This document shows, one piece after another, positions 4,368 to 58,569 of a DNA stretch of 64,000 nt. The notes under the pieces were generated by a model. That model was not told where the DNA came from, did no database searches, and saw only the letters and a list, made by a program, of their open reading frames with translations. The position numbers and the translations under genes are program-made. Source of the DNA: an uncultured virus (IMG/VR IMGVR_UViG_3300045825_000547) (Duplodnaviria; Heunggongvirae; Uroviricota; Caudoviricetes). The stretch lies in the IMG/VR virus record IMGVR_UViG_3300045825_000547; one strand, given 5' to 3'. Within the stretch, counting starts at the first letter, position 1, and each line of letters starts with the position of its first letter.

Positions 4368-4420
4368 TTTAGCTCCTCCTTATATAATAAATAAAAATAA
4401 AAAGTCAGTCTTTCACTTCA

Positions 4421-4450
4421 CTTATGCCAACAAATTGTTGTGTATTAACC
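4421..4450 (-). promoter_or_regulatory. Putative phage-specific promoter, copy 1
   Basis: Minus strand GGTTAAT-N13-TTGGCATAAG, ~55 bp upstream of the 4367 start. Confidence 0.75.
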
Positions 4451-4805: not shown

Positions 4806-4836
4806 ATGTTTTGGTATATTTTCCAAGGAGGGAACT

Positions 4837-12605: not shown

Positions 12606-12634
12606 GGTAATTATTCATAAGTTTTTGGCATAAG
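12605..12634 (+). promoter_or_regulatory. Putative phage-specific promoter, copy 2 (runs straight into a terminator)
   Basis: GGGTAAT-N13-TTGGCATAAG. Confidence 0.55.
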
Positions 12635-12663
12635 AGGGTGAGAGAAAATCTCACCTCTTTTTG
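12632..12663. terminator. Intrinsic terminator at convergent junction
   Basis: agagggtgaga / tctcacctct stem followed by T run. Confidence 0.75.
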
Positions 12664-12664
12664 T

Positions 12665-13549
12665 TTAGCCGTAACTAGACATTAATGCTCTTCTCTTAAC
12701 AGTGTCGCCAGAAGCAGAACGGAGAGCGCTAGTAGCCCTAGAAGACTCACTAATATCTCCGGAGCGTTGAATGCTCATTGGTGACTCAAAAGCATTACGA
12801 GGTGCCGTGATAGCTCCTGGTCTAGTTCTAGCTTTTAACTCAGATCCTCTGTTTTGTTTCTCTACTGTCGCTCTAATATCATTAAGTCTTTTGCCTCTCA
12901 TTTGTTCATGCGCATTTTGTTCTACCCAGTTGGATGTAGTGTTGGTATTCCCTTTTGAGCTTACACTTATTGGGTTGGTTTGTTGTTTGTACGCGGTAAC
13001 AGGATTACGAGTAATACTTGTATTTACATTCGACACAGGACGTTGCCCTTGTATAGTGTTACTTCTATTTCTGCCTCCGAAAACATTTTCCACAGAAGGG
13101 TGTGCAGGGCTATTAATCTCCGCAGAAATTGTAGCGGAGCTTAAGTGTTTATTTTTTTGTGCTATTCTTGCCTTTGCGTCTTGCTTGTAGCTGTTCACGT
13201 TAAAGTCTGCACGAGGTTGAGCGGCTTGGAACATTGCTGGGGAATTGGTGGGAGTAGGGGTTACTGTTCTAGGCAGATTTTCTCTTGCTATTCCGCCACC
13301 AACAGTTCTTCTTTGGCCCATCTGAAAAACTTCTCTTGTAGGTTCTCCCTTAGCAAAAAGTGCTTTATTAACTCCGGAGGTAACGGAGTTTCTTATCTCC
13401 CCCACTTTAGCGGCAGTAACAGAGAGAGCTTTTCTTGCTCCACCCATTACCGAGCTGAACATGCCCGCTTGTTTCTGGTGATAGTTTTGTTCTATTATTT
13501 GTCCAACTAAGAAATCAATCCTAGCTTGTTTGTAAAGTATTCCTTGCAT
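12665..13549 (-). CDS. Putative virion/internal head protein (KxA family)
   Basis: LYKQA...HQKQAG near the N-terminus; basic, low-complexity. Confidence 0.6.
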   Translation of the reverse strand: MQGILYKQARIDFLVGQIIEQNYHQKQAGMFSSVMGGARKALSVTAAKVGEIRNSVTSGVNKALFAKGEPTREVFQMGQRRTVGGGIARENLPRTVTPTPTNSPAMFQAAQPRADFNVNSYKQDAKARIAQKNKHLSSATISAEINSPAHPSVENVFGGRNRSNTIQGQRPVSNVNTSITRNPVTAYKQQTNPISVSSKGNTNTTSNWVEQNAHEQMRGKRLNDIRATVEKQNRGSELKARTRPGAITAPRNAFESPMSIQRSGDISESSRATSALRSASGDTVKRRALMSSYG

Positions 13550-27735: not shown

Positions 27736-27765
27736 CTTATGCCAAGTTTTGTTTAATAATTTCCT
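27736..27765 (-). promoter_or_regulatory. Putative phage-specific promoter, copy 3
   Basis: AGGAAAT-N13-TTGGCATAAG. Confidence 0.7.
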
Positions 27766-33766: not shown

Positions 33767-33952
33767 ACTAAAGAAAAAGACAGGTTCGTATCTGGCTTTT
33801 TCTTATAATTCATTTTTACAAAGGCGGGTAACTCTACCAGCCTTTGTCGCGCAGCATATCATCTAATGATGATTTAATAAAACTATTCATATTTCCCCCT
33901 TTCAATGTGGGAACAATAATAGAAAAGAAAAACAAGTTTCTCTTTCATAGTT

Positions 33953-33982
33953 CTTATGCCAACAAATTGTTGTTTATTAACC
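33953..33982 (-). promoter_or_regulatory. Putative phage-specific promoter, copy 4
   Basis: GGTTAAT-N13-TTGGCATAAG. Confidence 0.75.
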
Positions 33983-34318
33983 GCAATTGTAAAGCACTGT
34001 AACAACTATTTTGTATCATGTATCACTAAAAATAATAGGAATATAGTTGGAACCTACTAACTAGGTAGGAATCTTTATTCTAGAGAGTTTGCTCCTTATA
34101 AAATAGTTGTTACAGTGCTTTACAATTAACTCAAATGTAGATATAGTAAGGAACATCTAAATTCACAACAGGGCTCTAATTCAATGGATTGTCTTATAGA
34201 GGGTAGTTGCCTTTATATATATAGATAGTAGTGTGCTGATAAAAGCAAACCTCTCCCAATTCCTTTTAATGATTTTTCAGATCATCGTTGGCCTTTTCTT
34301 GTTTAATTTTTTATGTTA
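33953..34318. repeat. Intergenic element, copy B, with perfect 28-bp inverted repeat (33985-34012 / 34100-34127)
   Basis: Direct repeat of 4421-4805. Confidence 0.95.
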
Positions 34319-34353
34319 TTCTTTTTTAAATTTCGTACACAAAGGAAAACACA

Positions 34354-45650: not shown

Positions 45651-46153
45651 TCTAATTTCCTTTGCATTTTATAATATAATTTCTCTAATTCATCTTGTTC
45701 CTCCCTTTCGGTATAATCCAATCTACGAAAGGGAATCCCCAATTCTTCCAACAAAATGATCCCCATTAGCGCTTGTTCATGCCCATACCCGCGGCTTTCA
45801 CAGTTCCATAAAGAGAATTTCTTCTCTTCTAGATTGATATATGGGTAGGTGTCATCTAGGATATGATTCCCCACAATAGAGTCCATATTCTCTCGGATCT
45901 CTTTCTCGGTAGCAGCCCTTGGCCATTTGTTGCGTGTTCCTTGACTTGTCACCCACTCATTTCTTCCTTCGTATAGGCGACCGTCGTGGTAACCTTCCTC
46001 TATAAATATGGAGTGGGAGAAAGGAAAAGAGTCTTTGTCCGCAGGAGTGACACGGCAGAGCGCATCGATCAACTCTTGCCTATTTTTCATTAGGCGTACC
46101 CACCGTTCTTCGTAATATCTGGTTGTTTTATGTTTACTACTCATACTGACCAC
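45647..46153 (-). CDS. Hypothetical protein
   Basis: 168-aa ORF in operon. Confidence 0.65.
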   Translation of the reverse strand: MVSMSSKHKTTRYYEERWVRLMKNRQELIDALCRVTPADKDSFPFSHSIFIEEGYHDGRLYEGRNEWVTSQGTRNKWPRAATEKEIRENMDSIVGNHILDDTYPYINLEEKKFSLWNCESRGYGHEQALMGIILLEELGIPFRRLDYTEREEQDELEKLYYKMQRKLE

Positions 46154-46177
46154 AGTCCTTGAAAAAGCGTTGTCGCA

Positions 46178-46441
46178 TTAGTTTGCATGTCGAGGCTCTC
46201 CTTCGTATGGAGGAATTCTTTCCATTTCCTCTGCCTCTTCTATGTGGCATAAATTATAATCATCACCAGGGTATACCCACAGTCCGGTATGGGGTTGGGT
46301 CCAGCTCCTGCGAGTTATCTGGGCCGAAATCACCCGCCCCTCTTTAGTGGGGAATGCTATGGTTAGCCTAGGCTTTATATACTTCTGCGTTGACCCAAAA
46401 CGGTACCAAAGGTCCTTTTTAAATTCTTCTACCATCTGCAT
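46178..46441 (-). CDS. Hypothetical protein, WY...AExL family
   Basis: KKDLWYRF ... EEAEEM. Confidence 0.65.
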   Translation of the reverse strand: MQMVEEFKKDLWYRFGSTQKYIKPRLTIAFPTKEGRVISAQITRRSWTQPHTGLWVYPGDDYNLCHIEEAEEMERIPPYEGEPRHAN

Positions 46442-46728
46442 TTCTCCGCCTCCTGCGTTAGTATCTCCGCTTTATCTACTCCCACCAAATGGAAAGTTGT
46501 GCCAGAGGGAAAACGATGACTGGCTAAGCTATAAAGCCTCTGCCCATACCCTATGTCAGTGCATAATAGGCCATCTCTTTCCTCCTCCACGATTGCATAT
46601 CTGGTAGGTCTGAGATATTGCAGCGGCTTAATAGTTGAGTTCTGCGCCATATCAACTCGATACCACACCCAGAAGGTCAGTTTTTGCTTTTCTACACGCG
46701 TGCCAGTGTTACCTGCGGGAATACCCAT
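46429..46728 (-). CDS. Hypothetical protein, WY...AExL family
   Basis: FWVWYRV ... DKAEIL. Confidence 0.65.
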   Translation of the reverse strand: MGIPAGNTGTRVEKQKLTFWVWYRVDMAQNSTIKPLQYLRPTRYAIVEEERDGLLCTDIGYGQRLYSLASHRFPSGTTFHLVGVDKAEILTQEAEKCRW

Positions 46729-47033
46729 AGTTTTCCTCCTTTCATTTCTTTTTCCTTCCGCTCTCGCGCTAATTGATTTTCTAATCTTTCAGCTTTCTCA
46801 AAAGAAGCTGGAATAAAATAATCGTCCTGTCTCTTGTCCTTATCTCCACATAACCCGATCTCGTCCGTGGGCGTGAGGACTGTGTAGTTTAAGTAATTTT
46901 CTGCAATTCCGGAGTCCCCTGCTTTAACCCACTGTTTCCATGAAACTCCGCCCTTGTAGCTTTTATCACTATGAAACCTGTACCACATCCCTTCATGGAT
47001 GTGCTTAACTCCTTTACTAATACCGCTCTTCAT
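46692..47033 (-). CDS. Hypothetical protein, WY...AExL family
   Basis: HEGMWYRF ... PASFEKAERLENQL. Confidence 0.7.
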   Translation of the reverse strand: MKSGISKGVKHIHEGMWYRFHSDKSYKGGVSWKQWVKAGDSGIAENYLNYTVLTPTDEIGLCGDKDKRQDDYFIPASFEKAERLENQLARERKEKEMKGGKLWVFPQVTLARV

Positions 47034-47295
47034 CTACCCACCCCTCTAGTCGTAATTGTTTTTCTAATCTTTCAGCTTGTTTAAAAGTTGCTGGGGTAAA
47101 CGAAATGTTGGGTTTAGGTCCTGCACCCCGAATTTCTTCTCTTAAGGGGAGTAGCGTCACAAAATGTAACTCGTGGTAACAATTTCCAGAGCCTCTAGCC
47201 TTAGCCCACCGTCTCTCCACCAATCGCATATCACATACATTTTTACAACGATATCTGTACCACATACCCTCATTGATCTCGTAAACTTTATTCAT
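47017..47295 (-). CDS. Hypothetical protein, WY...AExL family
   Basis: NEGMWYRY ... PATFKQAERLEKQL. Confidence 0.7.
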   Translation of the reverse strand: MNKVYEINEGMWYRYRCKNVCDMRLVERRWAKARGSGNCYHELHFVTLLPLREEIRGAGPKPNISFTPATFKQAERLEKQLRLEGWVDEERY

Positions 47296-48425
47296 TCTTT
47301 TATTTTTCCCTCCCTCTCTAATCTACAAAAGTGATAAGTAAGATACTCCGCGGTCTTCATACCAATTTGTCGAAATTGATGATCGTCCGCGAGAATCATC
47401 GTTCTGTCTCCTCTTCTAACGTCAGCCTCAAGCCTCTTTCCTTTATGGTACTCTCCCCGGTAAGTCAGACTTGCGCACATCGTGTGGGAATCAAGCATTA
47501 CAAATGTTCTATAAAAGCTAACGGCGCGTGAGTGATCTTTATAGGAAATTTCATACCAAACACCCGCTTCTATGATGTCCACAGGGACAAGGGTTTTGTC
47601 ATACGTGGGACCACTAGAGAAGGCATTAGCCCAAGCTGAGTCTAGTATATGCGTAAGATACTCATGTGCCTTCGGGTTATATGGGTTGAGCGCTGCCCCC
47701 TTCTCCACAAAAGTTCCAGTATTGGCACCAACCCGCGCTTGTGTAAGCTGTGCATAAAGATCAACTGCTGGGGTTGGGTCTATTATTCGTCCGAGCTTTG
47801 GTGGCTCGTCCCCCCACCAAGTTACTTGAATTTTCTCACCTGTAGCGGGGTCTTCTATCAGCTCTGTACGAAGCTGTGGGGAGGGTGGTGGGGCAAGGAG
47901 CAAGGGCTTGGTTTTGTCTTTCTCTATTTCTTTTTCAAGAAGCGGGTAAGTTTTTGCTAGGAACCATTCTTGCTCGTTCAATGTATCTGCTATCAGCTTC
48001 TCCATATTTGGTAGCGAAAACACTTCTACCAAAAACGGTTTTTTGACAAACTCCCTTTTAGTGGTTTGATGGTCTCCACCATTACGTTGTCCGGTTGCTC
48101 CATAGTCCTTCCCTTTTCGCCCAATACAACAATATACTCGGGCATCGTCGTATATCAAAAAGGAAACTGCAAGTTCATTATTCCATGAGTTTTTAGGAAG
48201 TAGTGGAAGCTCTAGTTCTTTATACGTATCCGCTTTGCTCACTTTGATCTTTCTCAAACCCTGTATGACTTTTGTAAACAAGACCCACCCTATCTCCGCA
48301 TCTTTTTTGTATTTCTCTGCTAATTGTTCTGGGGTGAGACCTTGATCGTATAGGGCTTGCCGCAGGTCTCTATCATATTTAGCCTGTACCAGAGTGTGCA
48401 GGTCAATCAGTTTTTCAATATCCAT
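47292..48425 (-). CDS. Hypothetical protein with C-terminal WY...AExL domain
   Basis: EAGVWYEI ... KTAEYL in the last ~95 aa. Confidence 0.7.
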   Translation of the reverse strand: MDIEKLIDLHTLVQAKYDRDLRQALYDQGLTPEQLAEKYKKDAEIGWVLFTKVIQGLRKIKVSKADTYKELELPLLPKNSWNNELAVSFLIYDDARVYCCIGRKGKDYGATGQRNGGDHQTTKREFVKKPFLVEVFSLPNMEKLIADTLNEQEWFLAKTYPLLEKEIEKDKTKPLLLAPPPSPQLRTELIEDPATGEKIQVTWWGDEPPKLGRIIDPTPAVDLYAQLTQARVGANTGTFVEKGAALNPYNPKAHEYLTHILDSAWANAFSSGPTYDKTLVPVDIIEAGVWYEISYKDHSRAVSFYRTFVMLDSHTMCASLTYRGEYHKGKRLEADVRRGDRTMILADDHQFRQIGMKTAEYLTYHFCRLEREGKIKE

Positions 48426-48455
48426 ATTTTTCCTTTATTCATACAATAAAATAAA

Positions 48456-48487
48456 AAAAGAAACACCTTGCTAGTTGTGTTTCTTTT
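48456..48487 (-). terminator. Terminator-like hairpin
   Basis: aaaagaaacac / gtgtttctttt with T run on the minus strand. Confidence 0.65.
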
Positions 48488-48493
48488 GTGCAG

Positions 48494-48841
48494 TTAGTTT
48501 CTAATGAACCCTCTCACCCACATCACCTGCCCGTCGGCATCTCTACCCGCAGAATATCCCGTGTCGGGGGAAATCAAATCACCTCTGGTCGGGTTGGCAA
48601 GACGCACAACCAATGAGACGATTAACCAGGTCCCTTCTTGGTGGGGTGGGAGGTTGGCAGTCTTCTCCTTGCCCAGCCTACTCACCGGGTATTTCAACCC
48701 ATTTACTACGATGTGGCCCTCCTCCTCGACGGAGGAAATGACTCTAGCGGGGGCCACCTTGGGGTCTTTTGGGAAAGTGGTGTAACCGCTCTCACACCAC
48801 ACTTCCACGTCGTGGGGTGTAAGGTTTTTTATTGTTGCCAT
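48494..48841 (-). CDS. Conserved phage hypothetical protein
   Basis: IKNLTPHDV...ARV...LP...IVS...R.DL.SP...RD..GQ; start moved to ATG 48841 (SD gaggagg). Confidence 0.7.
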   Translation of the reverse strand: MATIKNLTPHDVEVWCESGYTTFPKDPKVAPARVISSVEEEGHIVVNGLKYPVSRLGKEKTANLPPHQEGTWLIVSLVVRLANPTRGDLISPDTGYSAGRDADGQVMWVRGFIRN

Positions 48842-48879
48842 AAAATCCTCCTCCCCGCACATCCGGGGGAATATAATAA

Positions 48880-49053
48880 TTAAGTGTCTCTTCTAGCGGT
48901 GTCTAGGAAATGGCTTTGCACCACTAAGTGCTCGACTATAGCGGTGTTGCTTCCGTTTCTGGGCTTCCCCGTTATAGTGATATCCCCATTTGAGTGTGTC
49001 TCTACACACACCCAGAAATACTCTGTAATAATTGTTGTTTCACTTTTAGACAT
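48880..49053 (-). CDS. Small hypothetical protein (first gene after phage promoter)
   Basis: SD aaggagg before ATG 49053. Confidence 0.55.
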   Translation of the reverse strand: MSKSETTIITEYFWVCVETHSNGDITITGKPRNGSNTAIVEHLVVQSHFLDTARRDT

Positions 49054-49107
49054 AACGTCCTCCTTGGCAAAAATAATGCCAAAAATAATAGGTTTTTCTT
49101 TCATATA

Positions 49108-49137
49108 CTTATGCCAAGAAAAAGCTAAAAAATAACA
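49108..49137 (-). promoter_or_regulatory. Putative phage-specific promoter, copy 6
   Basis: TGTTATT-N13-TTGGCATAAG. Confidence 0.65.
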
Positions 49138-49138
49138 C

Positions 49139-49165
49139 AAAAAACTCCCCCACAAAGGAGGAGAA
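49139..49165 (-). terminator. Intrinsic terminator after the RNAP gene
   Basis: Minus strand ctcctcc...gggggag stem then T run. Confidence 0.65.
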
Positions 49166-49190
49166 ATTTATAGATTGTAGAAAGAATTTT

Positions 49191-52100
49191 CTACATTTTC
49201 TTTATTTCTATATGATCATTGATTGCAATCTGCTTATTCTCGTAAGCTTTCTTTGCATCCTCCACAGTGTTGAAGGTGTGGATAGGCTTAGCTTGGTTTG
49301 GAGAAGAGATTGCATTAAGTCCCATAATTGTTTCCTGTTGAGGAAGATGCCAGAGAGACTTGTCCAATACATGGAACAGGTTGTTAGAAGGAAGCATTTG
49401 ACGAGCTTCTGCGATGGCTTCGTTGCTGATCGGGAGATGACAGGTCGCTGTATCAAACACAACCCACGAGGACTCTGTGACCATTGTGAAGTCTGGTGGA
49501 ATTGTGAGGTCGTATGCTTCGGTGAGATCCGGAACTGGTGTGATCTCTACCACATTTTCCCAATGTGTATTTTCATCAAGCACCCATTCTTTCCAACGAA
49601 CCCAGAAAGGAGATTTGTCAAGTTCAGGCAGGTTGAGTGCAAGGATTGATTTACAGTTCCCCATAGTAAGGAAAGGAGATCTGCCGTTTTTCCCTTTCAC
49701 TATATCGTTTAGTGTAGTGTAGAGAGAACAACGTGCAGAGATGTTTGCCATTTTCACAGGATCGTCAGATACAGGAATGTTAGTTCCTTTCTTGAACTTT
49801 CTAGGAGCTCCCACCATCTTCTGAAGCTCTGCAACTCTTTCCACAGAGGTAGGTGGGCCATAGAACTCTCTGTCCACATCTACATCTCTTGCTTGAAGGA
49901 GGTTAGCTTGTTTGAGTGGGTGAGAAAGTACAATCATAGACTTTAATCTATACACACTATCACTACTAAAGAACACTGTGTAACAGACTCCCCCAGCAGG
50001 TGTTTTGCCAACTGTCACGCCAACAGATAAACCAAGAGTATTACCGAGTGCAACGATCTCAAAGGCTAATCTTTCTGATGTGGTGGTTATGTTTAAGTTC
50101 GCTTGTGGCTTGTCTTTTCTCTTGCCTGAAGCATTTATATCCATAGCACCGTCTGTGTCAATCAACCCAGCAAGGAGGCCTTTTCTGAAAGCAATCGGGG
50201 ACTCTAAAAAGAAATCAGGGAAGTGTTTGTTCTGTGCTTTGTGCCCAACCCATTCTTTTATTAAAGGCCCAAGCATACCTGCAGCAGACCAAGTAACTTT
50301 AGCCGATTCACAATCATAGCCTTGGTATGTGTGGTCGTTGTTTACCCAAGACAAGTGAACTTTATCCCCGTTAGCTGCAACAATGTTTTCTTGTATTATT
50401 TTTTCCCATCTAGCATCCATCGCTTTGGTGGTAGATGCAAAACATAAATAAAATTGACTACTATGGTTACCCGCAGAGATCCAACCATCTCCCACAATAC
50501 AACCAATCAAATAACCGGTGTCGTAGTTTAATGGCATTTTTTCTCTTAGAATATGTTTATGTCCTTCGTTATTTACTGGTAACACCACTTCGTCTAGTGA
50601 GTGCTCATACACTGGTTTTGTTCTAATCGGAACAAGCATCTGTTCTTTTGGTTCAGATTTTACTATGTTTAAGTCTTTGTCTAGTGTTACCAAAGAGTGA
50701 TCTTTAGAACAGATAACGGTTCTGTGACGATTGGTTTTCACGTTAACCATGGTCAGGCCCCTATGAACAGAGAAAGACTCTGGCTTAAGCCATTTGTATT
50801 CTCTATCGTTTCCAAGAACTAACACTTCCACACCTTCCGGTACATCGTAGAAATCTGTGTTTTCCTTTGTTCTTTTGGTTTCCTCAAGTCTAGGGAAATC
50901 TTTTAAAAGAGTGAGCCCGTTTTTGTAAAGCACTCTGTTGTTAATTGGCATCTGATCATTGTCCTTTTCTGACAAAATATTGTTATAAGAAACTTCGGTT
51001 TCCTTCGTTTCCTTATGCCAAGAATTATAGCAGAATTTCCCTTGGGTGTCAACTATCTGAGATCGCTGAAACACTGATGAATAACACGAATCACCGTCAA
51101 AATCCATATTAAAGCCCTTCACTGCCATAGTACTCATGTGTATTGTCTTACCCTCAACAATAGTTGGGTTGAACGCCACGAACGAGTGCTTATGAAGACT
51201 TGGCGCTCTGTTGAGCATTACAGGTCTCTTAGCCATCTCATTAACCAGCATAGTGTGGGCAAGTGGGGTTTGCTTCTCTAATTCTTCTTTTGCTCTAGGG
51301 ATCGAGAACCCATTCTTTACCATTTCCCCTGCCACAAAGTTTCCGTACAATTTCCATGCCATTGGCTTCGGAATCCCCACTTCATCGAGCCCCATTTTTG
51401 GGTTAGGCGCTACTGTAGCTCTACCTACTAAATCTTGCACTCTACTAAGTAGTTTAGATTGGAAGAATCCCATTTTCGGTTGTGTTCCTACTAACACTTT
51501 TAGGAACCCGCTTGGGTCTCTATTCTTATTAGCAGCCATGTCCCCTGCTGTGGGGTCGAGTCCTTGTAGCTTCTGTACACTCTCGTGAAGCCCTTTATAT
51601 CGTTCCAAGTTAATTGGGTCATTTGGCCCGAGTGCTTGGCTTAAAGGGTCACTCAAGAGCTTATTAAAGTGCACCACTTCTTGGTACAATCTGTTAGCAT
51701 CTGTAACCACGGTCTTTCCTTTCTCATCTGGGTAGATAGGGCGGAATTTAGGAGGAATAATTGGTATCACATTATTCACATAGGCATCTACTGGGTGAAG
51801 CTTCATAGAGTCTAAAGCGGATAAGTACTTTATCTTCTTGATTAAAGAATCCTTTTTATCAAGGGTTTTTGCACCAGCTAACTCGTGGTGATATTTCTGA
51901 AGATCTGCTTTCACATTGATCTTTTTCAAGGCAGCTTGGAAGGCTTCAGCGCCTCTCATTTGTTTTCCATCTACCATCATGTGAGCTGAGCCATCTGCTA
52001 CGGCTTTGAATGTCTTTTGGTCTATATCTAGCAAACTTCTTATTGGTTTCTCATACATGCTGTTCACTACGGGACGAGCTAATTGGATATGAGTCCAATG

Positions 52101-55100
52101 ATTCCCTGCTAATCCTCCTGTGAGTCCTTGGTCAAATAATCCGCCTTTCTCTGGACGGAAATTTAAGCCTGTTACAGGATCTGGTTTCTCCATAACGAGG
52201 GCAGCATCTTTTATTTCTCCTTTGCTTCTTGCCAACACGTCTTTATCAGTGAGAGGCATAACTTGGAGATTGTTTCCTTCTCTTTTCACGTTAATCCCCA
52301 TCCCGTTTAGATAGGTTTCCACTTTATTCCATGTGAAAGTAGATTTAGGTTTAGGGAGAGGCTTTCCTCCTAACACTGCAGCCCAAAGTTCTGGGTTGTA
52401 CTCAGCTTTATATGTTGCCATTTCTCTAAGAATGTTCTTGGTGTGGCCATAACCTAGCACGGCATAAAGATCTAAGTTTCCTACAGCCTTACTTCCTTCT
52501 TCTCCTCCTCTCACTGGCCTCATATCTATGTCATATTCCCCACCTGCTCTTGCTGCGAAGTTTCCTTCTGTTTGTTTAGAGAGTTTATATATGTACTGAA
52601 CACCGCTCAATATTTTAGGAATCTTTTTGCCAGTAGTTGGGTCTATGTAGGTTTCTTCTGTCTTAACTCCTGCAGCTTTGGCAGTAGCATTGATGTCTTC
52701 CCAGGTGTTTTTTCCATTAAAGTTCTTGTAGAATTCTGCTTTGTTTCCTTTAGCTTTCAATACTTTCCCAAGCACGGTTTCAAATACTTGTCCATTGTTC
52801 ATACGGGAATTAAGTCCTGCAGGATTCAATAACACATCAGGGATATGACCTTCTGCTGTTTTAGGAGCTTCGTGATCCGGAATGATTAGCCCGACAATCC
52901 CTTTGTTCCCATATCTACCACTGTTGCCACAGAATCTTTCTTTTCCATTTCTTCTTACGTATAGATTCCCTGTAGCAGTTGTTAGGCAGTACACCGGTTG
53001 GTCGTAGTCTTCTTCCACAACAAATACGGAATTGATGTCTTTTTTCTTTTTAAGATAGAAGTTGTTATTTTTGTCTTGTCTTATCTGTATAAAACTGAAA
53101 TACCCCCTTCCTACTTCTATGGCTTTTTTCTTAGTAGCTTCTGTAGCACCTGCGTCAAAGAACCCGAACAAATCGTGTTTATCTGTAACAAATATGTCCA
53201 CGTCTTTACCAGCACGTCTAACCATTCTTCCGCCTTCTGGGAATACATGGATAGCTCTAGGCTCTTCCCATATAACTGCTTGTTTTTTAAAGCTAGGTCC
53301 TGTAACTAATTGTGCTATTCTATCTTTAATGGAAATATCTGTGATGTATTTCCAACCTTTGTCTGTTAACACCTCGGTTAGGGCATCATAGCAAAGCTTA
53401 TCCCCTAGCTGAAGCGGCGCCACAGCCTCGATTATAACCTTTATAAATCCTGGCTGGGCTATCACGTCCTTCACTCTTCCTGGGTAGTTCTTATCCCAAG
53501 CAAGGCTTATATCTCCGAACGGGTTAGATATTCTGTCCACAGCTTTTCCTGAAAGAAGAATTTCCGGGTTAGCTCTTTTCTTTTTAAGGGCAAGAATGAG
53601 CGGGTCTCCTTGCACTACTGTTGCTCCTTTCTTCACCACACTTCCATTGAGATTTGCAATCTGCGATGGCGAATATTTGTTAGGATACCAAGCTTTATAC
53701 TTAGCAGCATCTACCAATACTGAGTCATCTGGGATCTCTAGTTCTTCTTGAAAGATGTGATTAGATGAAAATTTGTTAGCACCTGTCTGTGTAACCACCA
53801 CAGCATCCTCGAAGTTGTACCCTTTGTACGGAATGTACGCTACGTTGGCATTAATTCCTATTGCCATCTTTCCATCTTTAGCATAATTATGCTCTGCAAT
53901 GATAGAGCCTTTCTTCACTGTGTCTCCCACCTTCACAGTTGGGGTGGAATGTAGGTAAGAGTGGTAGTTAAGAGGAAATTCATGAGGAATAAAATGGGTG
54001 ATGGCTTTTCCATCGGTTCCTGCTATGTGAATTTCCGAATCAGATATCTTAGTTACTTTTCCATCCACTTTTGCTTTCGGGTGATACACACTTGTGATCA
54101 ATTTATTGGCAGATGTGTCAACTAATGGTGGCTCTCTGTCAACTAACGACAAAGCTTGGGTAGTCATCTTTGCCCCCATGGCAGTTCTTTGTCCTTGAGA
54201 GTTAGCGAGGAACGGGAGCGCGCCTGTAGTCACTGTGTAGATGGCTTCGGAAGGAATAAGGAAGTCTAGTTTGCTCTTAGGTACTTCTGTTATCTTCCCT
54301 TTATGGAAAGCTCTCACCATATTTCCCGGCTGAGTTGGTTCGTTCTCCACACACACGTATTTATCGAATGCACTTACGTGGTCTATGTTTTCATATTTAC
54401 CAGTTTTGGCATTTTTCCAAGTAGATACAAGTTTATCTCCTTTTTTGGTAGTAAGCATACCCAATCTCAAGTCAATTCCCGCTCTCATATTGTCTGGCGT
54501 TCTTACTGGGTCAATAAAACCCATGTGAGAGGGGTGAAGGTTACGCGCATCTTTAGGAAGACTTTCTGTGGAACTGATTCCCCCTTCCCCTAACGAGGTG
54601 ATTTTGTGTGCATTCTCCATAAACTCGTAAGGATTGACCTGCATTGGGTAATTCACAATGTCCGAGTCAACAAAGAAGCCTCGCAAGTGAGAATCAAAGG
54701 CACTTCTTAGCCCTGTTCTAGATGGATTGGTTGCTGCATCTATTTTAAACTTCAATTTGTTAATAGTTTGTGGAGCGAGCTTGGTGAACTTTTCATAGAG
54801 GAAATCTTCAGCAGAGTGCATACTCTTAAATGCCAAATTATCTTTCCAAGTTGGGTCAGCTTCTCCTTTATATATACTCATTACTTCTTTAGCTGCGTGA
54901 ATTAGGGGGGCAGCCTCAACTTTTGTGTAACCCACGCCTAGAGTCTTTTTATTAGTCTCCGGGTCCATTATGGTTTTATCAAATTTCTCTTTTATTGCCA
55001 TTGCCATCCCTTCTGTGGTGGTAGGTTTAGGGAGACGATTCCCTTTATGGAGAAGATCGTATAATTGGCCTAAATGGGTGTCCATTTTCCCTGCAGTTTT

Positions 55101-55679
55101 GGCAACTTGGTCTAAATGCATCTCGGTGCCAAATGCTTTGGCTAATTCGGCGTCTGGTGTTTTATACACTCCTTTAAGAATAGAGTAAAGGGGGACATTA
55201 CTCTTGTTTACGCTCACGTTGAAGAGTCCTTTACTGGGCTGGTAGGTGAGTTCCATGTTCTTTCCCTTAGCTAAGTTGAAATCCGCCTGTGCCACACCTA
55301 GTCTATCAAGTTTAGTGTAGATTGCTGGGCGAAGACGCATTTGTGTGGAAGCAGAATACTCTTTTCCATTTAATATAATAGAGTGACGGTTGGTGATAGA
55401 AGGAATAAATCCTAGCTTCACTTTCTTACTCTTCCCTATACTTTTGCCAGTGCTTTTCTCTACGAGTTCCATATCCCCGTACATGTTAACGCCCTCAGTT
55501 CCTCTTTTATAAAGAATGTCTTTTTGACGAGCGTAATCATCTGGTGCAGGGAGGGGATCGAAATGGATGTTGTCCACTTTTAATATGTTCCTACGCCCCT
55601 CAATGGTACTGTATTTCTCGTCTATAGCCTTCTTAACACTATTTTGCATATCGAGTGAGTATTGTACTGGATCTTTCAT
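49191..55679 (-). CDS. DNA-directed RNA polymerase, fused beta + N-terminal beta' subunit, with two inteins
   Basis: Beta motifs RNLHPSHMGFIDPVRTP, RTAMGAKMTTQA, GYNFEDA, GDKL|SGRYGNKG, DVLLNPAG..SRMN.GQ; beta' motifs GGLFD, VIPIIPPKFRP, PVMLNRAPSLHK, catalytic NMDFDGD|TATCHLP. Confidence 0.95.
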   Translation of the reverse strand: MKDPVQYSLDMQNSVKKAIDEKYSTIEGRRNILKVDNIHFDPLPAPDDYARQKDILYKRGTEGVNMYGDMELVEKSTGKSIGKSKKVKLGFIPSITNRHSIILNGKEYSASTQMRLRPAIYTKLDRLGVAQADFNLAKGKNMELTYQPSKGLFNVSVNKSNVPLYSILKGVYKTPDAELAKAFGTEMHLDQVAKTAGKMDTHLGQLYDLLHKGNRLPKPTTTEGMAMAIKEKFDKTIMDPETNKKTLGVGYTKVEAAPLIHAAKEVMSIYKGEADPTWKDNLAFKSMHSAEDFLYEKFTKLAPQTINKLKFKIDAATNPSRTGLRSAFDSHLRGFFVDSDIVNYPMQVNPYEFMENAHKITSLGEGGISSTESLPKDARNLHPSHMGFIDPVRTPDNMRAGIDLRLGMLTTKKGDKLVSTWKNAKTGKYENIDHVSAFDKYVCVENEPTQPGNMVRAFHKGKITEVPKSKLDFLIPSEAIYTVTTGALPFLANSQGQRTAMGAKMTTQALSLVDREPPLVDTSANKLITSVYHPKAKVDGKVTKISDSEIHIAGTDGKAITHFIPHEFPLNYHSYLHSTPTVKVGDTVKKGSIIAEHNYAKDGKMAIGINANVAYIPYKGYNFEDAVVVTQTGANKFSSNHIFQEELEIPDDSVLVDAAKYKAWYPNKYSPSQIANLNGSVVKKGATVVQGDPLILALKKKRANPEILLSGKAVDRISNPFGDISLAWDKNYPGRVKDVIAQPGFIKVIIEAVAPLQLGDKLCYDALTEVLTDKGWKYITDISIKDRIAQLVTGPSFKKQAVIWEEPRAIHVFPEGGRMVRRAGKDVDIFVTDKHDLFGFFDAGATEATKKKAIEVGRGYFSFIQIRQDKNNNFYLKKKKDINSVFVVEEDYDQPVYCLTTATGNLYVRRNGKERFCGNSGRYGNKGIVGLIIPDHEAPKTAEGHIPDVLLNPAGLNSRMNNGQVFETVLGKVLKAKGNKAEFYKNFNGKNTWEDINATAKAAGVKTEETYIDPTTGKKIPKILSGVQYIYKLSKQTEGNFAARAGGEYDIDMRPVRGGEEGSKAVGNLDLYAVLGYGHTKNILREMATYKAEYNPELWAAVLGGKPLPKPKSTFTWNKVETYLNGMGINVKREGNNLQVMPLTDKDVLARSKGEIKDAALVMEKPDPVTGLNFRPEKGGLFDQGLTGGLAGNHWTHIQLARPVVNSMYEKPIRSLLDIDQKTFKAVADGSAHMMVDGKQMRGAEAFQAALKKINVKADLQKYHHELAGAKTLDKKDSLIKKIKYLSALDSMKLHPVDAYVNNVIPIIPPKFRPIYPDEKGKTVVTDANRLYQEVVHFNKLLSDPLSQALGPNDPINLERYKGLHESVQKLQGLDPTAGDMAANKNRDPSGFLKVLVGTQPKMGFFQSKLLSRVQDLVGRATVAPNPKMGLDEVGIPKPMAWKLYGNFVAGEMVKNGFSIPRAKEELEKQTPLAHTMLVNEMAKRPVMLNRAPSLHKHSFVAFNPTIVEGKTIHMSTMAVKGFNMDFDGDSCYSSVFQRSQIVDTQGKFCYNSWHKETKETEVSYNNILSEKDNDQMPINNRVLYKNGLTLLKDFPRLEETKRTKENTDFYDVPEGVEVLVLGNDREYKWLKPESFSVHRGLTMVNVKTNRHRTVICSKDHSLVTLDKDLNIVKSEPKEQMLVPIRTKPVYEHSLDEVVLPVNNEGHKHILREKMPLNYDTGYLIGCIVGDGWISAGNHSSQFYLCFASTTKAMDARWEKIIQENIVAANGDKVHLSWVNNDHTYQGYDCESAKVTWSAAGMLGPLIKEWVGHKAQNKHFPDFFLESPIAFRKGLLAGLIDTDGAMDINASGKRKDKPQANLNITTTSERLAFEIVALGNTLGLSVGVTVGKTPAGGVCYTVFFSSDSVYRLKSMIVLSHPLKQANLLQARDVDVDREFYGPPTSVERVAELQKMVGAPRKFKKGTNIPVSDDPVKMANISARCSLYTTLNDIVKGKNGRSPFLTMGNCKSILALNLPELDKSPFWVRWKEWVLDENTHWENVVEITPVPDLTEAYDLTIPPDFTMVTESSWVVFDTATCHLPISNEAIAEARQMLPSNNLFHVLDKSLWHLPQQETIMGLNAISSPNQAKPIHTFNTVEDAKKAYENKQIAINDHIEIKKM
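49452..51089 (-). mobile_element. LAGLIDADG homing-endonuclease intein (546 aa) directly after the catalytic DFDGD
   Basis: Starts SCYSSV; block B CSKDHSL; YLIGCIVGDG and LLAGLIDTDG; block F AYDLTIP; ends WVVFD|T. Removal gives NMDFDGD-TATCHLPIS, matching cellular NADFDGDQMAVHVPLS. Confidence 0.88.
51012..51052 (-). promoter_or_regulatory. Overlapping sigma70-consensus promoter and phage promoter (copy 7) inside the intein coding sequence
   Basis: TTGACA(51052-51047)-N17-TATAAT(51029-51024) with extended TG; GGGAAAT-N13-TTGGCATAAG(51021-51012). Confidence 0.8.
52923..53393 (-). mobile_element. Mini-intein (157 aa) in the RNAP beta GDK..GRxGNKG motif
   Basis: CYDALTEVLTDKGW ... VTDKHDL ... 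VYCLTTATGNLYVRRNGKERFCGN|S. Confidence 0.92.
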
Positions 55680-55696
55680 TTTGGTCCTCCGGAATT

Positions 55697-55738
55697 TGCT
55701 ACAATTGTAATTATATGCACGATTACAACGAGGAACAA
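55697..55738. promoter_or_regulatory. Overlapping sigma70-type promoters for the RNAP gene (-) and head operon (+)
   Basis: - strand TTGTTC-N17-TATAAT (55738-55710); + strand TGCTACAAT (55697-55705); palindrome tacaattgta. Confidence 0.55.
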
Positions 55739-55742
55739 CCCT

Positions 55743-56393
55743 ATGGACGCAATTCTTTTATCACTTATTCACTCTATGCAGTCCAGTCTGCAAAAGGAAA
55801 TCTTCTACGTTGTGATGCTTATTTGTCTGTGGATTGTTACGGATACAATAGGGAAAATTAGAAAGTTCCTAGAGAATAGAAAGAAGAAAAAGACAGCTAA
55901 GTTTGAGTACTCTTTAGCAAAACATAATAAGATAGAAAGTACATTATATGATCTCCTTTACGCAGCAGATGCGGACAGAGTGTATCTAGCACAACTCCAT
56001 AACGGAGAAATAACTTCGGCTAAGATGCACATGTATAAAGTGAGTGTAAGCCACGAGGTGTGTAGGCCTGGTGTGAGTAGAGAAAAAGACAGTATTAAAA
56101 ATATCCAAGTTCAAGACCATTTAAAAGCTATGAACATATTAGTTAGGAAAGATATCATAGCTGTTGATGATGTGGGGGGATTGCAGCCCAACCTAACTCG
56201 TGCTTTACTACAGTCGCTGAATGTGAGTAGTGGCCTCTATATGGCGATAAGAGATAGAGAACAAACCATGGTAGGTTTTCTAGCTCTAGAGTTTGTGGAC
56301 ACCCCGTTTCCTGTTAAGGTGAGTGAAGATAAGGAATTAACGAAGTTATTCCAAAGAGAAGCTTCTATTCTTCAGCTTAATTTATTGGATTAA
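55743..56393 (+). CDS. Membrane-anchored GAF-like protein, possible holin
   Basis: One TM helix then basic patch and ADRVYLAQLHNG...VGFLALEF GAF-like region; architecture recalls T4 holin T; start moved to ATG 55743. Confidence 0.45.
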   Translation: MDAILLSLIHSMQSSLQKEIFYVVMLICLWIVTDTIGKIRKFLENRKKKKTAKFEYSLAKHNKIESTLYDLLYAADADRVYLAQLHNGEITSAKMHMYKVSVSHEVCRPGVSREKDSIKNIQVQDHLKAMNILVRKDIIAVDDVGGLQPNLTRALLQSLNVSSGLYMAIRDREQTMVGFLALEFVDTPFPVKVSEDKELTKLFQREASILQLNLLD

Positions 56394-56409
56394 AAGGAAA
56401 TTTAAGAGC

Positions 56410-56988
56410 ATGAGTGAAATTCAAGGAACCCCTATTGTCCCAGTCCCTAGTGGAAACCTTTCTAAGGGAAGTGCATTTGATGATTCAACCGAGCCACTCT
56501 CTATAAATAGATATGGTGTTAGGAATGTTTCTTTTGATGGAAAAACTGCAGATCATATAGATTGGCAACACATTAGGAAGATTGAAGTAGATGTGGACGA
56601 GGCTAGATTTTTCCTTTATAACGGAATGGTGGGTACTAGTGGGCACTCTATAGATTTAGATAAAGATTCTCAGGAATCTTCCACACTTTCTTGGTATAAA
56701 ACCTTAGAAGGCTTTTTAATTCTTTGGTCTCTCCAGTCTGCTCCTTGGTTTAAGATGAAGGATGGACGTACTGTGTATTCCTTTGGTGTGCCTAGAATAA
56801 TCTGGCTTACTGGTAGTAAATATATTAAGAAAACCAAGAATGCTGCTGGTGCTAGGGCTGCGTTGTATAATCAAATAGGGTTGGACACACAGAAAAGTGG
56901 TGAGATATTTGCTTACCATGATGAGGCTTGGACAGCTCTGGCAAACTATCAAAATGAACAACAAAAACAGGAGGCCGTTCCAGTATGA
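56410..56988 (+). CDS. Hypothetical protein
   Basis: 192-aa ORF in head operon. Confidence 0.65.
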   Translation: MSEIQGTPIVPVPSGNLSKGSAFDDSTEPLSINRYGVRNVSFDGKTADHIDWQHIRKIEVDVDEARFFLYNGMVGTSGHSIDLDKDSQESSTLSWYKTLEGFLILWSLQSAPWFKMKDGRTVYSFGVPRIIWLTGSKYIKKTKNAAGARAALYNQIGLDTQKSGEIFAYHDEAWTALANYQNEQQKQEAVPV

Positions 56989-57788
56989 CGTTCCAAAACC
57001 CGCTAGAAGAGATGGCACATAATATTGCAACATCTCTTATTTCACAGAAGAGTGCAGGACAAGGCATTGCTGAGTCACTTAGCGCTTCTATAGCAAAAAC
57101 TGCACAAAGTCAAAATTTATCATTAGATGCCCGTGCTACTTTAATTCCTTTAGTGAATAAAGCATATTTAAACCAAACTGGTGCGGATGAGTTCGAGAGA
57201 GCGACCCCAGAGAGTGTGGCGCAATTCCTTTATGGAAACCAAAAGAGTGCTTCTATGGAAACATATCATTATAAAGAATTTGAAGCTGTTCCTACGCCCA
57301 TGGATCAGGCCGGATTCAGAAAGGCTGCGTCGCAAGACCCTTCTTTTTCTAATCCAGGTGTCAGAATGAACGTGGCGAAAACTCTTCAAGCTATGAGCTA
57401 TGAAGACCAAGTGGGCGCTTATCACAACATGCTTAGAGCAAAGAGTGCTAGTGAGACTTGGTTCGAGAAAGCTGCATCTACCATAGATAATTTAAAAATG
57501 TACGGCGTAGACTCGTCTTTCATTAGCAATGCTATTTGGCAAGAAGAGAATGGTGCGAGAGATCTCCAAGAAGTGGCTTGTGCTATGTTTGAGAGAAGCC
57601 CTCGTACAAAGAGTGCATCGTTCGCGTCGCCTGCTCAGTTAGAATTAATGGGTAAGCAGTTATACAACGAGGTGGGTGAATTTATGGAAGCTTATGGCAA
57701 CTATAAACATGCATCGGAAGTGTTGGCTGGAAAAACAGAGATTCATGCTTCTATCAAGAAGAGAGGCGAGGTGATAGTTAATGCCTAG
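56985..57788 (+). CDS. Putative head/internal protein with many KxA(S) sites
   Basis: QKSAG, AKTAQ, QKSAS, RKAAS, AKSAS, EKAAS, TKSAS, YKHAS. Confidence 0.7.
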   Translation: MTFQNPLEEMAHNIATSLISQKSAGQGIAESLSASIAKTAQSQNLSLDARATLIPLVNKAYLNQTGADEFERATPESVAQFLYGNQKSASMETYHYKEFEAVPTPMDQAGFRKAASQDPSFSNPGVRMNVAKTLQAMSYEDQVGAYHNMLRAKSASETWFEKAASTIDNLKMYGVDSSFISNAIWQEENGARDLQEVACAMFERSPRTKSASFASPAQLELMGKQLYNEVGEFMEAYGNYKHASEVLAGKTEIHASIKKRGEVIVNA

Positions 57789-58569
57789 AAGCGATTATCA
57801 AAGGAAAGAAGCTCTTTTTGGTGTAGGTGCTATAGAGGGTTATGGTGCATACCAAGCTGCTCAAATGGTTCCTAAAGCTATGGAGTTTTTCACCGGGGCT
57901 AACACTGTTGCAGGGTTAGCAGAAAAGATTAAAGCCCTTACCCCAACCGGCCGTGCGTTAAACAAAGCTTATCATGAAAGAGGCTTGGCTAACTCTGCTA
58001 GTGCTAAAATATTAGAGATGAGCCAGAACTTCAAAGCTCTTGGTATTAACCCGCAGGATGCAGCGAGTGTAGCTAAAGCCTACGAAAGTAGTGTGAAAGC
58101 GCAACAAGCTACGCATGAGTTAGAGAGAGCAAATTCTCTAATCGGCAGGTTCAGTAAATCAACAGCAGGGCAACTCTCTATCCCTGTGTTGGCTATGGGT
58201 GCTGTGAGTGGTGGTGCTCTTGCTGCTAGGAAGATGATGAATGTTCTTGGTGCGGCAGGGGTGAATGTGGATCCTAGTGCAAGGATTGCGGCGAGAGTGG
58301 GGGTAGATAGAGTTATTCAGGCGAAACCTGAGTTGGGGAGTTATCCTCGTCAACAGGTAGAGTCGATATATATGAATATCTTCAACCATAGTCCGGAATT
58401 AGCAAAAGACCCTTTCACTATGGCAACTACAATAGAGAGAGTTCTTCAGATGGGCGGTGCTGACACGTCTGTATTGAAAGATTTAAGTGAATACCAAAAG
58501 TCAGTTGGTCAGCCAGAAAGAGACCAGGCGGATTTATTCCAAATGGGTAATAGTATTTTTAGGAGATAA
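57781..58569 (+). CDS. Putative virion protein (KxA leader)
   Basis: YQRKEAL leader; head operon. Confidence 0.65.
   Translation: MPRSDYQRKEALFGVGAIEGYGAYQAAQMVPKAMEFFTGANTVAGLAEKIKALTPTGRALNKAYHERGLANSASAKILEMSQNFKALGINPQDAASVAKAYESSVKAQQATHELERANSLIGRFSKSTAGQLSIPVLAMGAVSGGALAARKMMNVLGAAGVNVDPSARIAARVGVDRVIQAKPELGSYPRQQVESIYMNIFNHSPELAKDPFTMATTIERVLQMGGADTSVLKDLSEYQKSVGQPERDQADLFQMGNSIFRR

Follow-up and report, generated by a model that had tools for sequence, protein, structure and literature searches.

LAGLIDADG inteins lie in frame at the catalytic sites of essential enzymes whose relatives carry empty alleles, and to our knowledge inteins are taken to depend wholly on the host gene for their expression, with the LAGLIDADG endonuclease being made only within the host precursor. 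The intein described here, which sits in the RNA polymerase gene of an uncultured virus, shares this siting, and it also shares its fold and domain order with PI-SceI, PI-PfuI, and the TliVMA intein, in all of which the splicing domain is interrupted by a LAGLIDADG endonuclease. Its family differs from the known LAGLIDADG inteins in ending with Asp rather than Asn, in starting with Ser, Cys, or Thr, and in carrying past block A an insert that bears putative expression signals. The atypically split inteins (AceL-TerL, GOS-TerL, and VidaL) have a short N-terminal piece; in these the break directly follows the first strand of their splicing domain, and the internal start codon that we discuss lies at a like position, but they are two genes, whereas the frame here is continuous in all 26 loci for which DNA was obtained. 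Phage T4 I-TevI is an intron-encoded endonuclease with its own promoter. The likeness to it is that of a selfish endonuclease with its own promoter within a host gene, the promoter here being predicted from the sequence; however, the I-TevI ORF is housed in a non-coding loop of an intron, whereas the signals in the intein must also encode protein without stops. The PhiKZ gene gp178 presumably encodes an RNA polymerase subunit. This gene is the target of gp210, the intron endonuclease of PhiPA3 (Birkholz et al. 2024, PMC11620839), and that report provides, with a homing endonuclease of a large phage in co-infection competition, a precedent for the use that we propose, although gp210 is an HNH enzyme in an intron and ours is a LAGLIDADG intein. 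PMC2677866 (2009) describes a system found mainly in phages, in which the endonuclease has control elements of its own, reported as T4-type late promoter elements and hairpins ahead of the start codon. The host gene of that system is physically split, with a separate ORF for the endonuclease, whereas the intein here is a single open frame and the control elements are themselves translated.

The window, by which we mean the whole stretch of 64,000 nucleotides that was analyzed, encodes a fused polymerase ORF (Table 1) with the Pfam domains Rpb2_6, Rpb2_3, Rpb1_1, and Rpb1_2. The closest named phages to this ORF are Salmonella phage Arash and Vibrio phage D181, at ~33% amino acid identity, and beta'-C is encoded 20 kb away from it. 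A sigma70-like TTGTTC-17-TATAAT with GGAGG lies upstream of the polymerase gene itself, and an Rfam search returned nothing in 48000-56500. The boundaries of the intein in the catalytic loop were set from intein-less alleles and the family alignment, which places its first codon, Ser1531, at 51089; the AF2 model was built, and the first protein search run, on residues 1531-2066, i.e., without the last 10 residues of the intein, whose end is D2076. Pfam finds LAGLIDADG_3 (PF14528), Hom_end (PF05204), and Intein_splicing in it, and its best Foldseek matches are the TliVMA intein (7qss), PI-PfuI (1dq3), and PI-SceI, with I-DmoI and I-SceI also among the matches. As expected of an in-frame insert, the site is empty in Arash gp206 (ADYDGD/ALSMYLP, with the slash marking the site), and 18 metagenomic relatives are intein-less (DFDGD/T(A)...).

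The splicing nucleophiles are present, Ser1531 at position 1 and Thr2077 at position +1 of the C-extein. Position 1 is Ser, Cys, or Thr in most homologues, with Glu in P0037 and P0038, Asp in P0034, and Leu in L007. The Thr-x-x-His of block B takes the form S-K-D-H at 1658-1661, its His being invariant in alignments A1, A3, and A4, and both LAGLIDADG motifs are present with their acidic residues, together with the fold of a LAGLIDADG homing endonuclease. The C-terminal His-Asn is lacking; the intein ends in Phe-Asp, and 36 of the 39 family members end in [YWFQH]-Asp. Inteins that end in Asp are a known atypical form. Because the polymerase is otherwise intact and the intein sits in its catalytic loop, we infer that the intein splices. 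The insert that follows block A, ahead of the next conserved strand, varies in length and sequence across 39 homologues and is missing in L005 and L006. Residues 1-48 of the intein have pLDDT values below 50 in the AF2 model; this low confidence may stem from the shallowness of the alignment, which has 12 rows, three of them beginning at the internal Met.

Table 1. Positions of the polymerase gene, the intein, and the putative signals in the window.
Feature	Position	Strand	Remark
Fused RNA polymerase beta and N-terminal part of beta'	49191..55679	-	2162-aa ORF, two inteins inside
LAGLIDADG intein S1531-D2076, 546 aa	49452..51089	-	Sits between NMDFDGD and TATCHLP, catalytic loop
Intein block A SCYSSVFQRS, with Ser1 nucleophile	51060..51089	-	Not in the predicted internal product
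Hypervariable in-frame insert, block A to next conserved strand	50952..51059	-	Holds the putative promoter, phage motif, and leader
-35 TTGACA (codons gTT GAC Acc = V-D-T)	51047..51052	-	Direct reading
Extended -10 TGcTATAAT (TGC TAT AAT = C-Y-N)	51024..51032	-	TG 51032-51031, TATAAT 51029-51024
Phage motif GGGAAAT-N13-TTGGCATAAG, overlaps -10	51012..51041	-	GGGAAAT 51041-51035, 10-mer 51021-51012
Weak SD-like AAAAGGA, 10 nt ahead of ATG	50962..50968	-	Anti-SD duplex -3.7 kcal/mol
Nested in-frame ORF from ATG 50951 (M1577)	49191..50951	-	586 aa
LAGLIDADG motif 1 YLIGCIVGDGW	50481..50513	-	G/D columns invariant, alignment A4
LAGLIDADG motif 2 LLAGLIDTDGA	50145..50177	-	ORF translation, alignment A4
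C-extein T2077-M2162, beta' segment past the catalytic loop, 86 aa	49194..49451	-	ORF translation, intein-less alleles
Terminator-like hairpin and T-run directly past the ORF	49142..49169	-	Sequence scan

The first-pass annotation had read, early in the intein, a TTGACA-N17-TATAAT promoter with an extended TG, an overlapping phage motif that was the sole gene-internal copy of seven, and an in-frame ATG, all within a polymerase frame that stays open throughout. These readings hold: the promoter lies at 51052-51024 on the minus strand, the coordinates of the motif are right, the frame is open from 55679 to 49191, and ATG 50951 is Met1577 of that frame. With a spacer of 17 nt, the promoter matches the sigma70-type arrangement (hexamers at 16-18 nt spacing) at 12/12 with TG and is the top site in a consensus scan of 46000-58000. 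The perfect 12/12 pattern occurs once in the 64 kb, against 0.02 expected, and was matched in 2 of 100 shuffles. The exact 10-mer TTGGCATAAG of the phage motif has seven copies in the 64 kb, against 0.16 expected, a number reached in none of 100 shuffles, and the bipartite motif with up to three mismatches occurs six times, against 0.22 expected, the pattern having been defined on the intein copy, which has zero mismatches by construction. The six copies outside the intein lie between ORFs or at an ORF end, and five of these six are followed, 40-90 nt past the 10-mer, by a strong SD and a start codon; two copies, c4421 and c33953, carry TTTACA in the register of the TTGACA of the intein copy. 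The 10-mer was not found in Salmonella phage Arash or in L030, and is therefore lineage-specific. A sigma54 reading of TTGGCATAAG was dropped by eye, as there is no TTGC at the right distance.

The leader and the SD that had been annotated between this promoter and the ATG fared less well. For the 60-nt leader, the folding energy is -8.8 kcal/mol, compared with -6.08 ± 2.29 kcal/mol for shuffles (z = -1.19, with 17 of 200 shuffles equal or better), so the hairpin is not above chance, and the best fold differs from the stem that had been drawn. The SD AAAAGGA is present at 50968-50962 but is weak and does not exceed chance, ranking 19 among 60 in-frame Met codons, with 18 of the 59 others as strong or stronger. 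The predicted product of 586 aa was correctly described as lacking the N-terminal splicing residue and keeping both LAGLIDADG motifs; it is made up of 500 aa of the intein (M1577-D2076, without block A) and the 86-aa C-extein, which had gone unmentioned. A protein without the first strand of the splicing domain, as this one is, may not fold. The nested frame is continuous with the polymerase frame, whereas a free-standing homing endonuclease gene would be a separate ORF with a stop upstream. Because the terminator-like hairpin follows the ORF, the nested ORF would be the only coding content of a transcript from the internal promoter.

To place these signals among relatives, we used 26 distinct loci with DNA (the window, L001-L017, L019-L022, L024-L026, and L030). 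The metagenome scan yielded at least five loci; alignment A2 was too diverse for scanning, and the narrower A3 and A5 were used. The intein had no homologue, as DNA or protein (tblastn), in 50,697 phage records, and no relative was found in a single-protein scan of viral contigs, a genome-contig scan for relative loci, or a scan with P0041. The DNA of the window was found in two sequencing runs, both of wetland metagenome DNA; their contigs contained no joint across the intein, but the second run has no cover of the intein region and is uninformative on this point. A start codon occupies the same alignment column in 22 of the 26 loci (ATG, with TTG in L002), and for 12 of these 22 the strongest anti-SD pairing among all in-frame Met codons of the ORF is at that start. 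The column has no start codon in the remaining four, of which L005 and L006 have no insert, and L016 and L017 have the insert yet no start. The best sigma70-type match of the entire locus, on both strands, falls within the insert in nine of the 26 loci, representing six lineages: it is 12/12 in the window, L030, and L007, 12/12 with TG in L009-L011, 11/12 in L015, and 10/12 with TG in L020 and L021. In the window, L030, L009-L011, and L015, the -35 begins at an offset of +37 nt relative to the first codon of the intein. An outstanding sigma70-type match is absent in the other 17 loci. L009-L011, L020/L021, and L024/L025 are close kin, and the locus counts therefore overstate independence.

Alignment with homologous inteins, which had been put forward as a check on the promoter-bearing segment, came out in its favor: the segment is hypervariable at the protein level, and -35/-10, SD, and start are kept in the DNA. 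In DNA footprints, the hexamers, the SD, and ATGCC are invariant amid variable flanks. The residues that encode the SD differ among relatives (GG, RR, KE, EE, GE, and RK), and its retention through different amino acids points to a constraint at the nucleotide level. When the loci were recoded synonymously (1000 trials per locus), the observed 12/12 was attained in just 0.8-3.1% of the trials, the recoded sequences already scoring 9.4-9.8 of 12. For the SD, the fraction of recodings attaining the observed value was 0.33-0.57 in the window, L002, L004, and L014; given the amino acids, the SD is thus already strong after recoding in several loci, which counts against an expression cassette. A protein pattern able to encode a -35, 17 nt, and a -10 occurs in 13 of 49 inserts (2,648 residues) versus 25 times in 101,080 other residues. 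The residues I-D-T-x5-Y-N-T-W-H-K-E of P0005 predict a dual promoter like that of the window. Met stands in the start column of 42 of the 46 parsed homologues and is followed by Pro in 37; a start codon does not explain why Pro was kept in 37 of 42, suggesting some protein-level constraint on Met-Pro. Gene callers begin P0041, P0042, and P0050 precisely at the column Met. The signals are present in the intein, exceed chance, and are conserved at the nucleotide level in relatives.

We favor, with a probability of roughly 60%, the reading that the intein in the catalytic loop of the RNA polymerase holds a nested, in-frame expression cassette for an N-terminally truncated, non-splicing form of the endonuclease. 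Since such signals recur at the corresponding place in relatives from other phages, most of the intein can probably be made as a separate protein. The cassette would occupy the disordered loop that connects block A, the first strand of the splicing domain, to strand two, and there a host-type TTGACA-17-TGcTATAAT overlaps a phage promoter-like motif, GGkwAAT-N13-TTGGCATAAG. Transcription would start near 51017, and ribosomes would begin at ATG 50951, on either the short RNA or the full-length mRNA. Lacking Ser1 and block A, the 586-aa product could not splice, and the remainder of the splicing domain would be retained along with the two LAGLIDADG motifs. This product would be a free form of the homing endonuclease, joined to the 86-aa C-extein unless the C-terminal Asp cleaves. 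Because the full-length frame is open, the polymerase would still be made by cis-splicing. We further infer that the phage makes use of these signals, that the truncated protein is able to cut DNA, and that it is directed at the intein-less NMDFDGD/T... allele of related phages, in homing or in competition. The first-pass annotation had gone on to propose that endonuclease expression is uncoupled from that of the polymerase; the promoter, SD, and start kept in relatives speak for this, whereas the chance-level hairpin and SD of the window do not. A possible role in early homing had also been suggested, but the polymerase gene has a sigma70-like promoter of its own, and a difference in timing from the intein promoter is therefore not evident.

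A quite unlikely alternative is that the locus is a latent or dual-mode split intein, in which the cassette yields a long C-piece with the C-extein for trans-splicing, or that it is the relic or precursor of a split gene, and does not supply endonuclease. The position of the cassette directly behind block A is what this explanation would predict, and the gene calls P0041, P0042, and P0050, starting at the Met, are consistent with it; an upstream stop could not be shown for these three, and gene calls starting at the Met sit beside sibling calls starting before DGD. However, none of the 26 loci with DNA has a stop in the frame from block A to the Met, and the host gene, which a split intein or fractured gene would divide into two ORFs, is continuous in the window and the 25 other loci. 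No true split was seen among the 20 matches of a search for short N-terminal pieces, none of which ends after block A: of the 19 inspected, 18 are alleles without the intein and one, P0072, ends ahead of the motif, and P0040 has the intein. In L012, the gene is broken by a group I intron that precedes the intein. A relic, moreover, would not retain consensus hexamers across inteins that are only 27-50% identical.

It is distinctly unlikely, in our view, that the signals are real and serve another role, such as a pause at the internal SD for folding of the N-extein, extra 3' transcription of a long gene, or a regulatory transcript. Such roles would fit the greater frequency of the SD and start (22/26 loci) than of the sigma70-type promoter (9/26), as well as the frame in most relatives, which runs on past the intein into 500-1000 aa of beta'. 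In the window, however, the terminator-like hairpin 86 aa past the intein and the distant beta'-C leave no downstream cargo, a pause site requires neither a promoter nor a start codon, and a beta' fragment starting past the catalytic loop would be useless unless ligated. Coincidence combined with protein-level conservation, with V-D, C/W-Y-N, and M-P being structural and the signals being by-products of these residues and of A+T-rich DNA, could account for the conserved Met-Pro dipeptide, the high scores of recoded sequences, and the lack of a strong promoter match in most loci, but is very improbable given that the loop is hypervariable except at the positions spelling the signals, that the SD persists through different amino acids, that in six lineages a loop of ~150 nt contains the best promoter match of the entire locus, that the codon choice beats 97-99% of synonymous recodings, and that the intein copy of TTGGCATAAG is one of seven where 0.16 were expected.

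An unlikely extension of the nested-cassette reading is that the family represents a functional halfway stage from contiguous to atypically split inteins. The same DNA would then encode a cis-splicing intein and, from the conserved internal promoters of host and phage type, the RBS, and the start codon, a separate protein of long C-piece, endonuclease, and C-extein. This protein would act as an early, splicing-independent weapon against intein-less rival polymerase genes, and a single stop codon would be enough to turn the gene into a trans-splicing split gene.

In the literature, we found no report of an intein with such a nested expression cassette. If the nested cassette is real, this would be the first intein with gene-expression signals of its own, in the form of a conserved promoter, RBS, and start codon within coding sequence, and it would show how strongly nucleotide-level signals can overlay a translated loop. 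It would also connect inteins with free-standing homing endonucleases and with atypically split inteins in a single evolutionary series, and would suggest that the catalytic codons in the RNA polymerase genes of rival phages are the target of a nuclease that phages make early.

All of the signals that the first-pass annotation had described inside the active-site intein of the fused RNA polymerase (RNAP) gene, namely a sigma70-type promoter, the phage motif, an AAAAGGA Shine-Dalgarno (SD)-like sequence and an in-frame ATG, were read where it had placed them, and all fall within the single open frame of the gene. The perfect 12/12 promoter pattern occurs once in the 64 kb against 0.02 expected (matched in 2 of 100 shuffles), and the exact 10-mer of the phage motif occurs seven times against 0.16 expected, a number reached in none of 100 shuffles. 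The proposed leader hairpin did not hold up: the 60-nt leader folds at −8.8 kcal/mol compared with −6.08 ± 2.29 kcal/mol (z −1.19; 17 of 200 shuffles as good), and its best fold differs from the stem drawn originally. AAAAGGA is present but weak, since its duplex energy of −3.7 kcal/mol is equalled or bettered at 18 of the 59 other in-frame Met codons. Elsewhere in the phage, by contrast, genes carry SD sites of the AGGAGG type. Overall, the observed signals are real and mostly well above chance.

Features of the polymerase gene, its active-site intein and the other inteins of the window
Feature	Position	Strand	Remark
−35 TTGACA	51052-51047	−	direct reading; 17 nt to −10
Phage motif, upstream part GGGAAAT	51041-51035	−	then 13 nt
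TG of extended −10	51032-51031	−	direct reading
−10 TATAAT	51029-51024	−	direct reading
Phage 10-mer TTGGCATAAG	51021-51012	−	downstream part of motif
SD-like AAAAGGA	50968-50962	−	direct reading
Internal ATG	50951	−	in frame with 2162-aa ORF
Fused polymerase ORF	49191-55679	−	2162 aa, one open frame
Second intein, same ORF	52923-53393	−	157-aa mini-intein, C763...N919, without endonuclease
Remaining beta' (Rpb1 domain 5)	27764-29578	−	separate gene, 20 kb from beta/beta'-N gene
Ribonucleotide reductase gene with third intein	16465-18768	+	Intein_splicing match at residues 359-460

The Pfam domains of the ORF (Rpb2 domains 3 and 6, Rpb1 domains 1 and 2, LAGLIDADG_3, Hom_end and Intein_splicing) indicate a fused beta and N-terminal beta', and the closest named phages, Salmonella phage Arash and Vibrio phages D181, D148 and D69, show ~33% amino-acid identity in the beta' part. 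A sigma70-like TTGTTC-17-TATAAT, then GGAGG before the ATG, lies upstream of the RNAP gene (55700-55730, −); the listed ORF 55662-56393 (+) overlaps the gene start and probably begins further downstream than listed. The active-site intein begins at Ser1531 (codon at 51089), immediately after NMDFDGD, and ends at Asp2076, followed by TATCHLP. The empty site is seen in Arash gp206 (ADYDGD/ALSMYLP), which ends ~85 aa later like the window ORF, and in 18 metagenomic relatives, in which DFDGD is followed by T, A or S and an HVP-like sequence. A model of residues 1531-2066 (the intein minus its last 10 residues) had a mean pLDDT of 76.9, with the TliVMA intein (7qss, E 5e-19), PI-PfuI (1dq3) and PI-SceI as top structural matches; AF2 confidence is low at residues 1-48, which may come from a shallow alignment. 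Both LAGLIDADG motifs retain their acidic residues. The family C-terminus is Y, W, F, Q or H followed by Asp, not Asn, and then T or S in 36 of 39 aligned homologous proteins (P0001-P0039); this ending replaces the usual His-Asn, and the three exceptions are all Ser-Asn. Members of the family were detected in 38 metagenomic fused-polymerase proteins as well as in shorter gene calls, with no homologue among 50,697 phage genome records.

One relative's locus, L012 (a 100-kb contig), carries a group I intron at 1954-2328 (RF00028, 48.9 bits, E 2.5e-11, just under the gathering score of 50) within the catalytic-motif codons (...MDGD / FDGD...), ~70 nt upstream of intein codon 1, so that the RNAP active site hosts two neighboring mobile elements of different kinds. 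This intron accounts for the gene calls among P0043-P0051 that start just before DGD. The mini-intein sits in the beta part at the GDKL / SGRYGNKG junction, and a scan of 46000-58000 listed no strong promoter-like site in it. The ribonucleotide reductase has an RNR-II insertion domain and a barrel domain.

The intein copy of the phage motif is, as first noted, the only one of seven deep in a gene, the other six lying between ORFs or at an ORF end. Five of these six have a strong SD and start codon 40-90 nt downstream; downstream of the copy at 12625(+) there is instead a strong terminator-like hairpin. This copy (12605-12665, +) stands at the end of ORF 12096-12605, before a hairpin and T-run (MFE −18 kcal/mol, z −3.48), and faces a convergent gene; it may yield a very short RNA or reflect a non-promoter role of the motif. 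Another copy (27736-27765) directly follows the beta' C-terminal gene. When the seven copies are aligned, GG..AAT stands ~13 nt upstream and GAAAGA-like, purine-rich sequence lies downstream, making the intein copy a regular member of the motif family. Copies c4421 and c33953 have TTTACA at the register of the intein's TTGACA, so a host-type −35 is combined with the phage motif outside the intein as well. Two copies of a ~430-bp intergenic region (4384-4812 and 33916-34325; 79-96% identical in pieces, 29.5 kb apart), each with the phage motif and upstream TTTACA (−) and TTTACA-N17-GATATAGT-like sites (+), are probably duplicated divergent promoter regions.

Nucleotide-level conservation in relatives, one of the tests set by the first-pass annotation, was found: in DNA alignments the hexamers, the SD and ATGCC are invariant amid variable flanks. 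We compared 26 distinct loci (the window, L001-L017, L019-L022, L024-L026 and L030), leaving out L018 (a different region) and L023 and L027-L029 (repeats of included contigs); several are mutually close relatives, so the counts are not all independent. A start codon stands at the column of the internal ATG in 22 of the 26 (ATG, except TTG in L002) and is missing in L005, L006, L016 and L017. It has the strongest anti-SD pairing among the in-frame Met codons of its ORF in 12 loci (L001, L002, L004, L007, L009, L010, L011, L013, L014, L015, L020, L021), ranks 2-4 in L012, L019, L022 and L026, and is weak in the window, L003, L008, L024 and L025; L030, outside the ranking, has GAGGA (−5.6 kcal/mol). 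The SD is encoded via differing residues (A-G-G, S-G-G-G, Q-R-R, N-K-E, K-E-E, L-G-E, R-K). In nine loci, the insert, the hypervariable in-frame segment bearing the promoter, holds the best TTGACA/TATAAT match of the entire 3-8 kb locus on both strands: 12/12 in the window, L030 and L007, 12/12 with TG and a 16-nt spacer in L009, L010 and L011, 11/12 in L015, and 10/12 with TG in L020 and L021. L001 has TTTACA-17-TGgTAAGAT. Promoter-bearing loci represent six lineages by relatedness, and the −35 starts 37 nt past the first intein codon in the window, L030, L009-L011 and L015. Only 0.8-3.1% of 1000 synonymous recodings, using each ORF's own codon usage, reached 12/12. The other 16 loci showed no outstanding promoter match; some of these are rich in G+C, and other signals may operate in their hosts.

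At the protein level, an alignment of 39 homologues shows block A (S-x-x-x-V-F-x-R-F), then a segment hypervariable in length and sequence that closes with a conserved Met-Pro before the conserved strand G-L-V-N-L-x-D-F-P-R. Among 46 parsed proteins the start column is Met in 42 and Met-Pro in 37, with Val-Pro in three others; L005 and L006 lack both segment and Met, and their stretch from intein residue 1 to the DFPR Phe is 21 residues long. The conserved Pro points to some protein-level constraint and, with the many loci lacking a promoter match, would fit an unlikely rival reading of the signals, coincidence combined with protein-level conservation. A residue pattern compatible with xTT-GAC-Axx, five codons and then TAT-AAy is present in 13 of 49 inserts (2,648 residues), compared with 25 occurrences in the 101,080 residues that these proteins have outside the inserts, and P0005 has I-D-T-x5-Y-N-T-W-H-K-E, which, judged from amino acids only, would spell the sigma70 boxes and TGGCATAAG. 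The signals might also be real and serve some other use. A latent or dual-mode split intein is disfavored, because the frame is open in 26 of 26 loci with no physically split form found, the calls P0041, P0042 and P0050 start at Met but their siblings start just before DGD, and the upstream break in L012 is the group I intron. The reading that the intein carries its own expression signals is supported in its core by the nucleotide-level conservation, although the hairpin and SD strength of the window are not above chance.

For this nested expression, transcription would start near 51017 by the host RNA polymerase, perhaps also by the phage enzyme via the phage motif, and would end at the terminator-like hairpin 49169-49142, with the frame from the internal ATG as the only coding content. 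The predicted 586-aa product has the length and lacks the N-terminal splicing residue as originally proposed, with the correction that 86 aa are C-extein; it would comprise the intein minus Ser1 and block A, be incapable of beginning splicing and keep the DNA-cutting domain. The internal RBS may also be usable on the full-length mRNA, which would explain why SD and start occur in more loci than the promoter. The weak SD makes translation from 50951 less certain in the window than in L009-L011 or L015, and the RNAP gene's own promoter and GGAGG leave 'earlier' expression of the nested product not evident.

A search of main texts found neither an intein described as carrying internal expression signals nor one located in this motif, and the intein passages of a paper retrieved in a search on inteins, RNA polymerase and jumbo phages describe no such signals. 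The closest described arrangement is the fractured gene of Dassa et al. 2009 (PMC2677866), which is physically broken in two and whose endonuclease occupies an ORF of its own, accompanied by hairpins and late-promoter elements. We suggest that the intein contains a hitherto undescribed candidate cassette for nested expression of a homing endonuclease, and the overlap of its promoter with a phage-specific motif implies adaptation to this phage lineage. The likely target would be the empty DFDGD/T allele of relatives, and the likely use of the product would be homing or interference with co-infecting phages, for which an intron endonuclease of phage PhiPA3 offers a precedent (PMC11620839).
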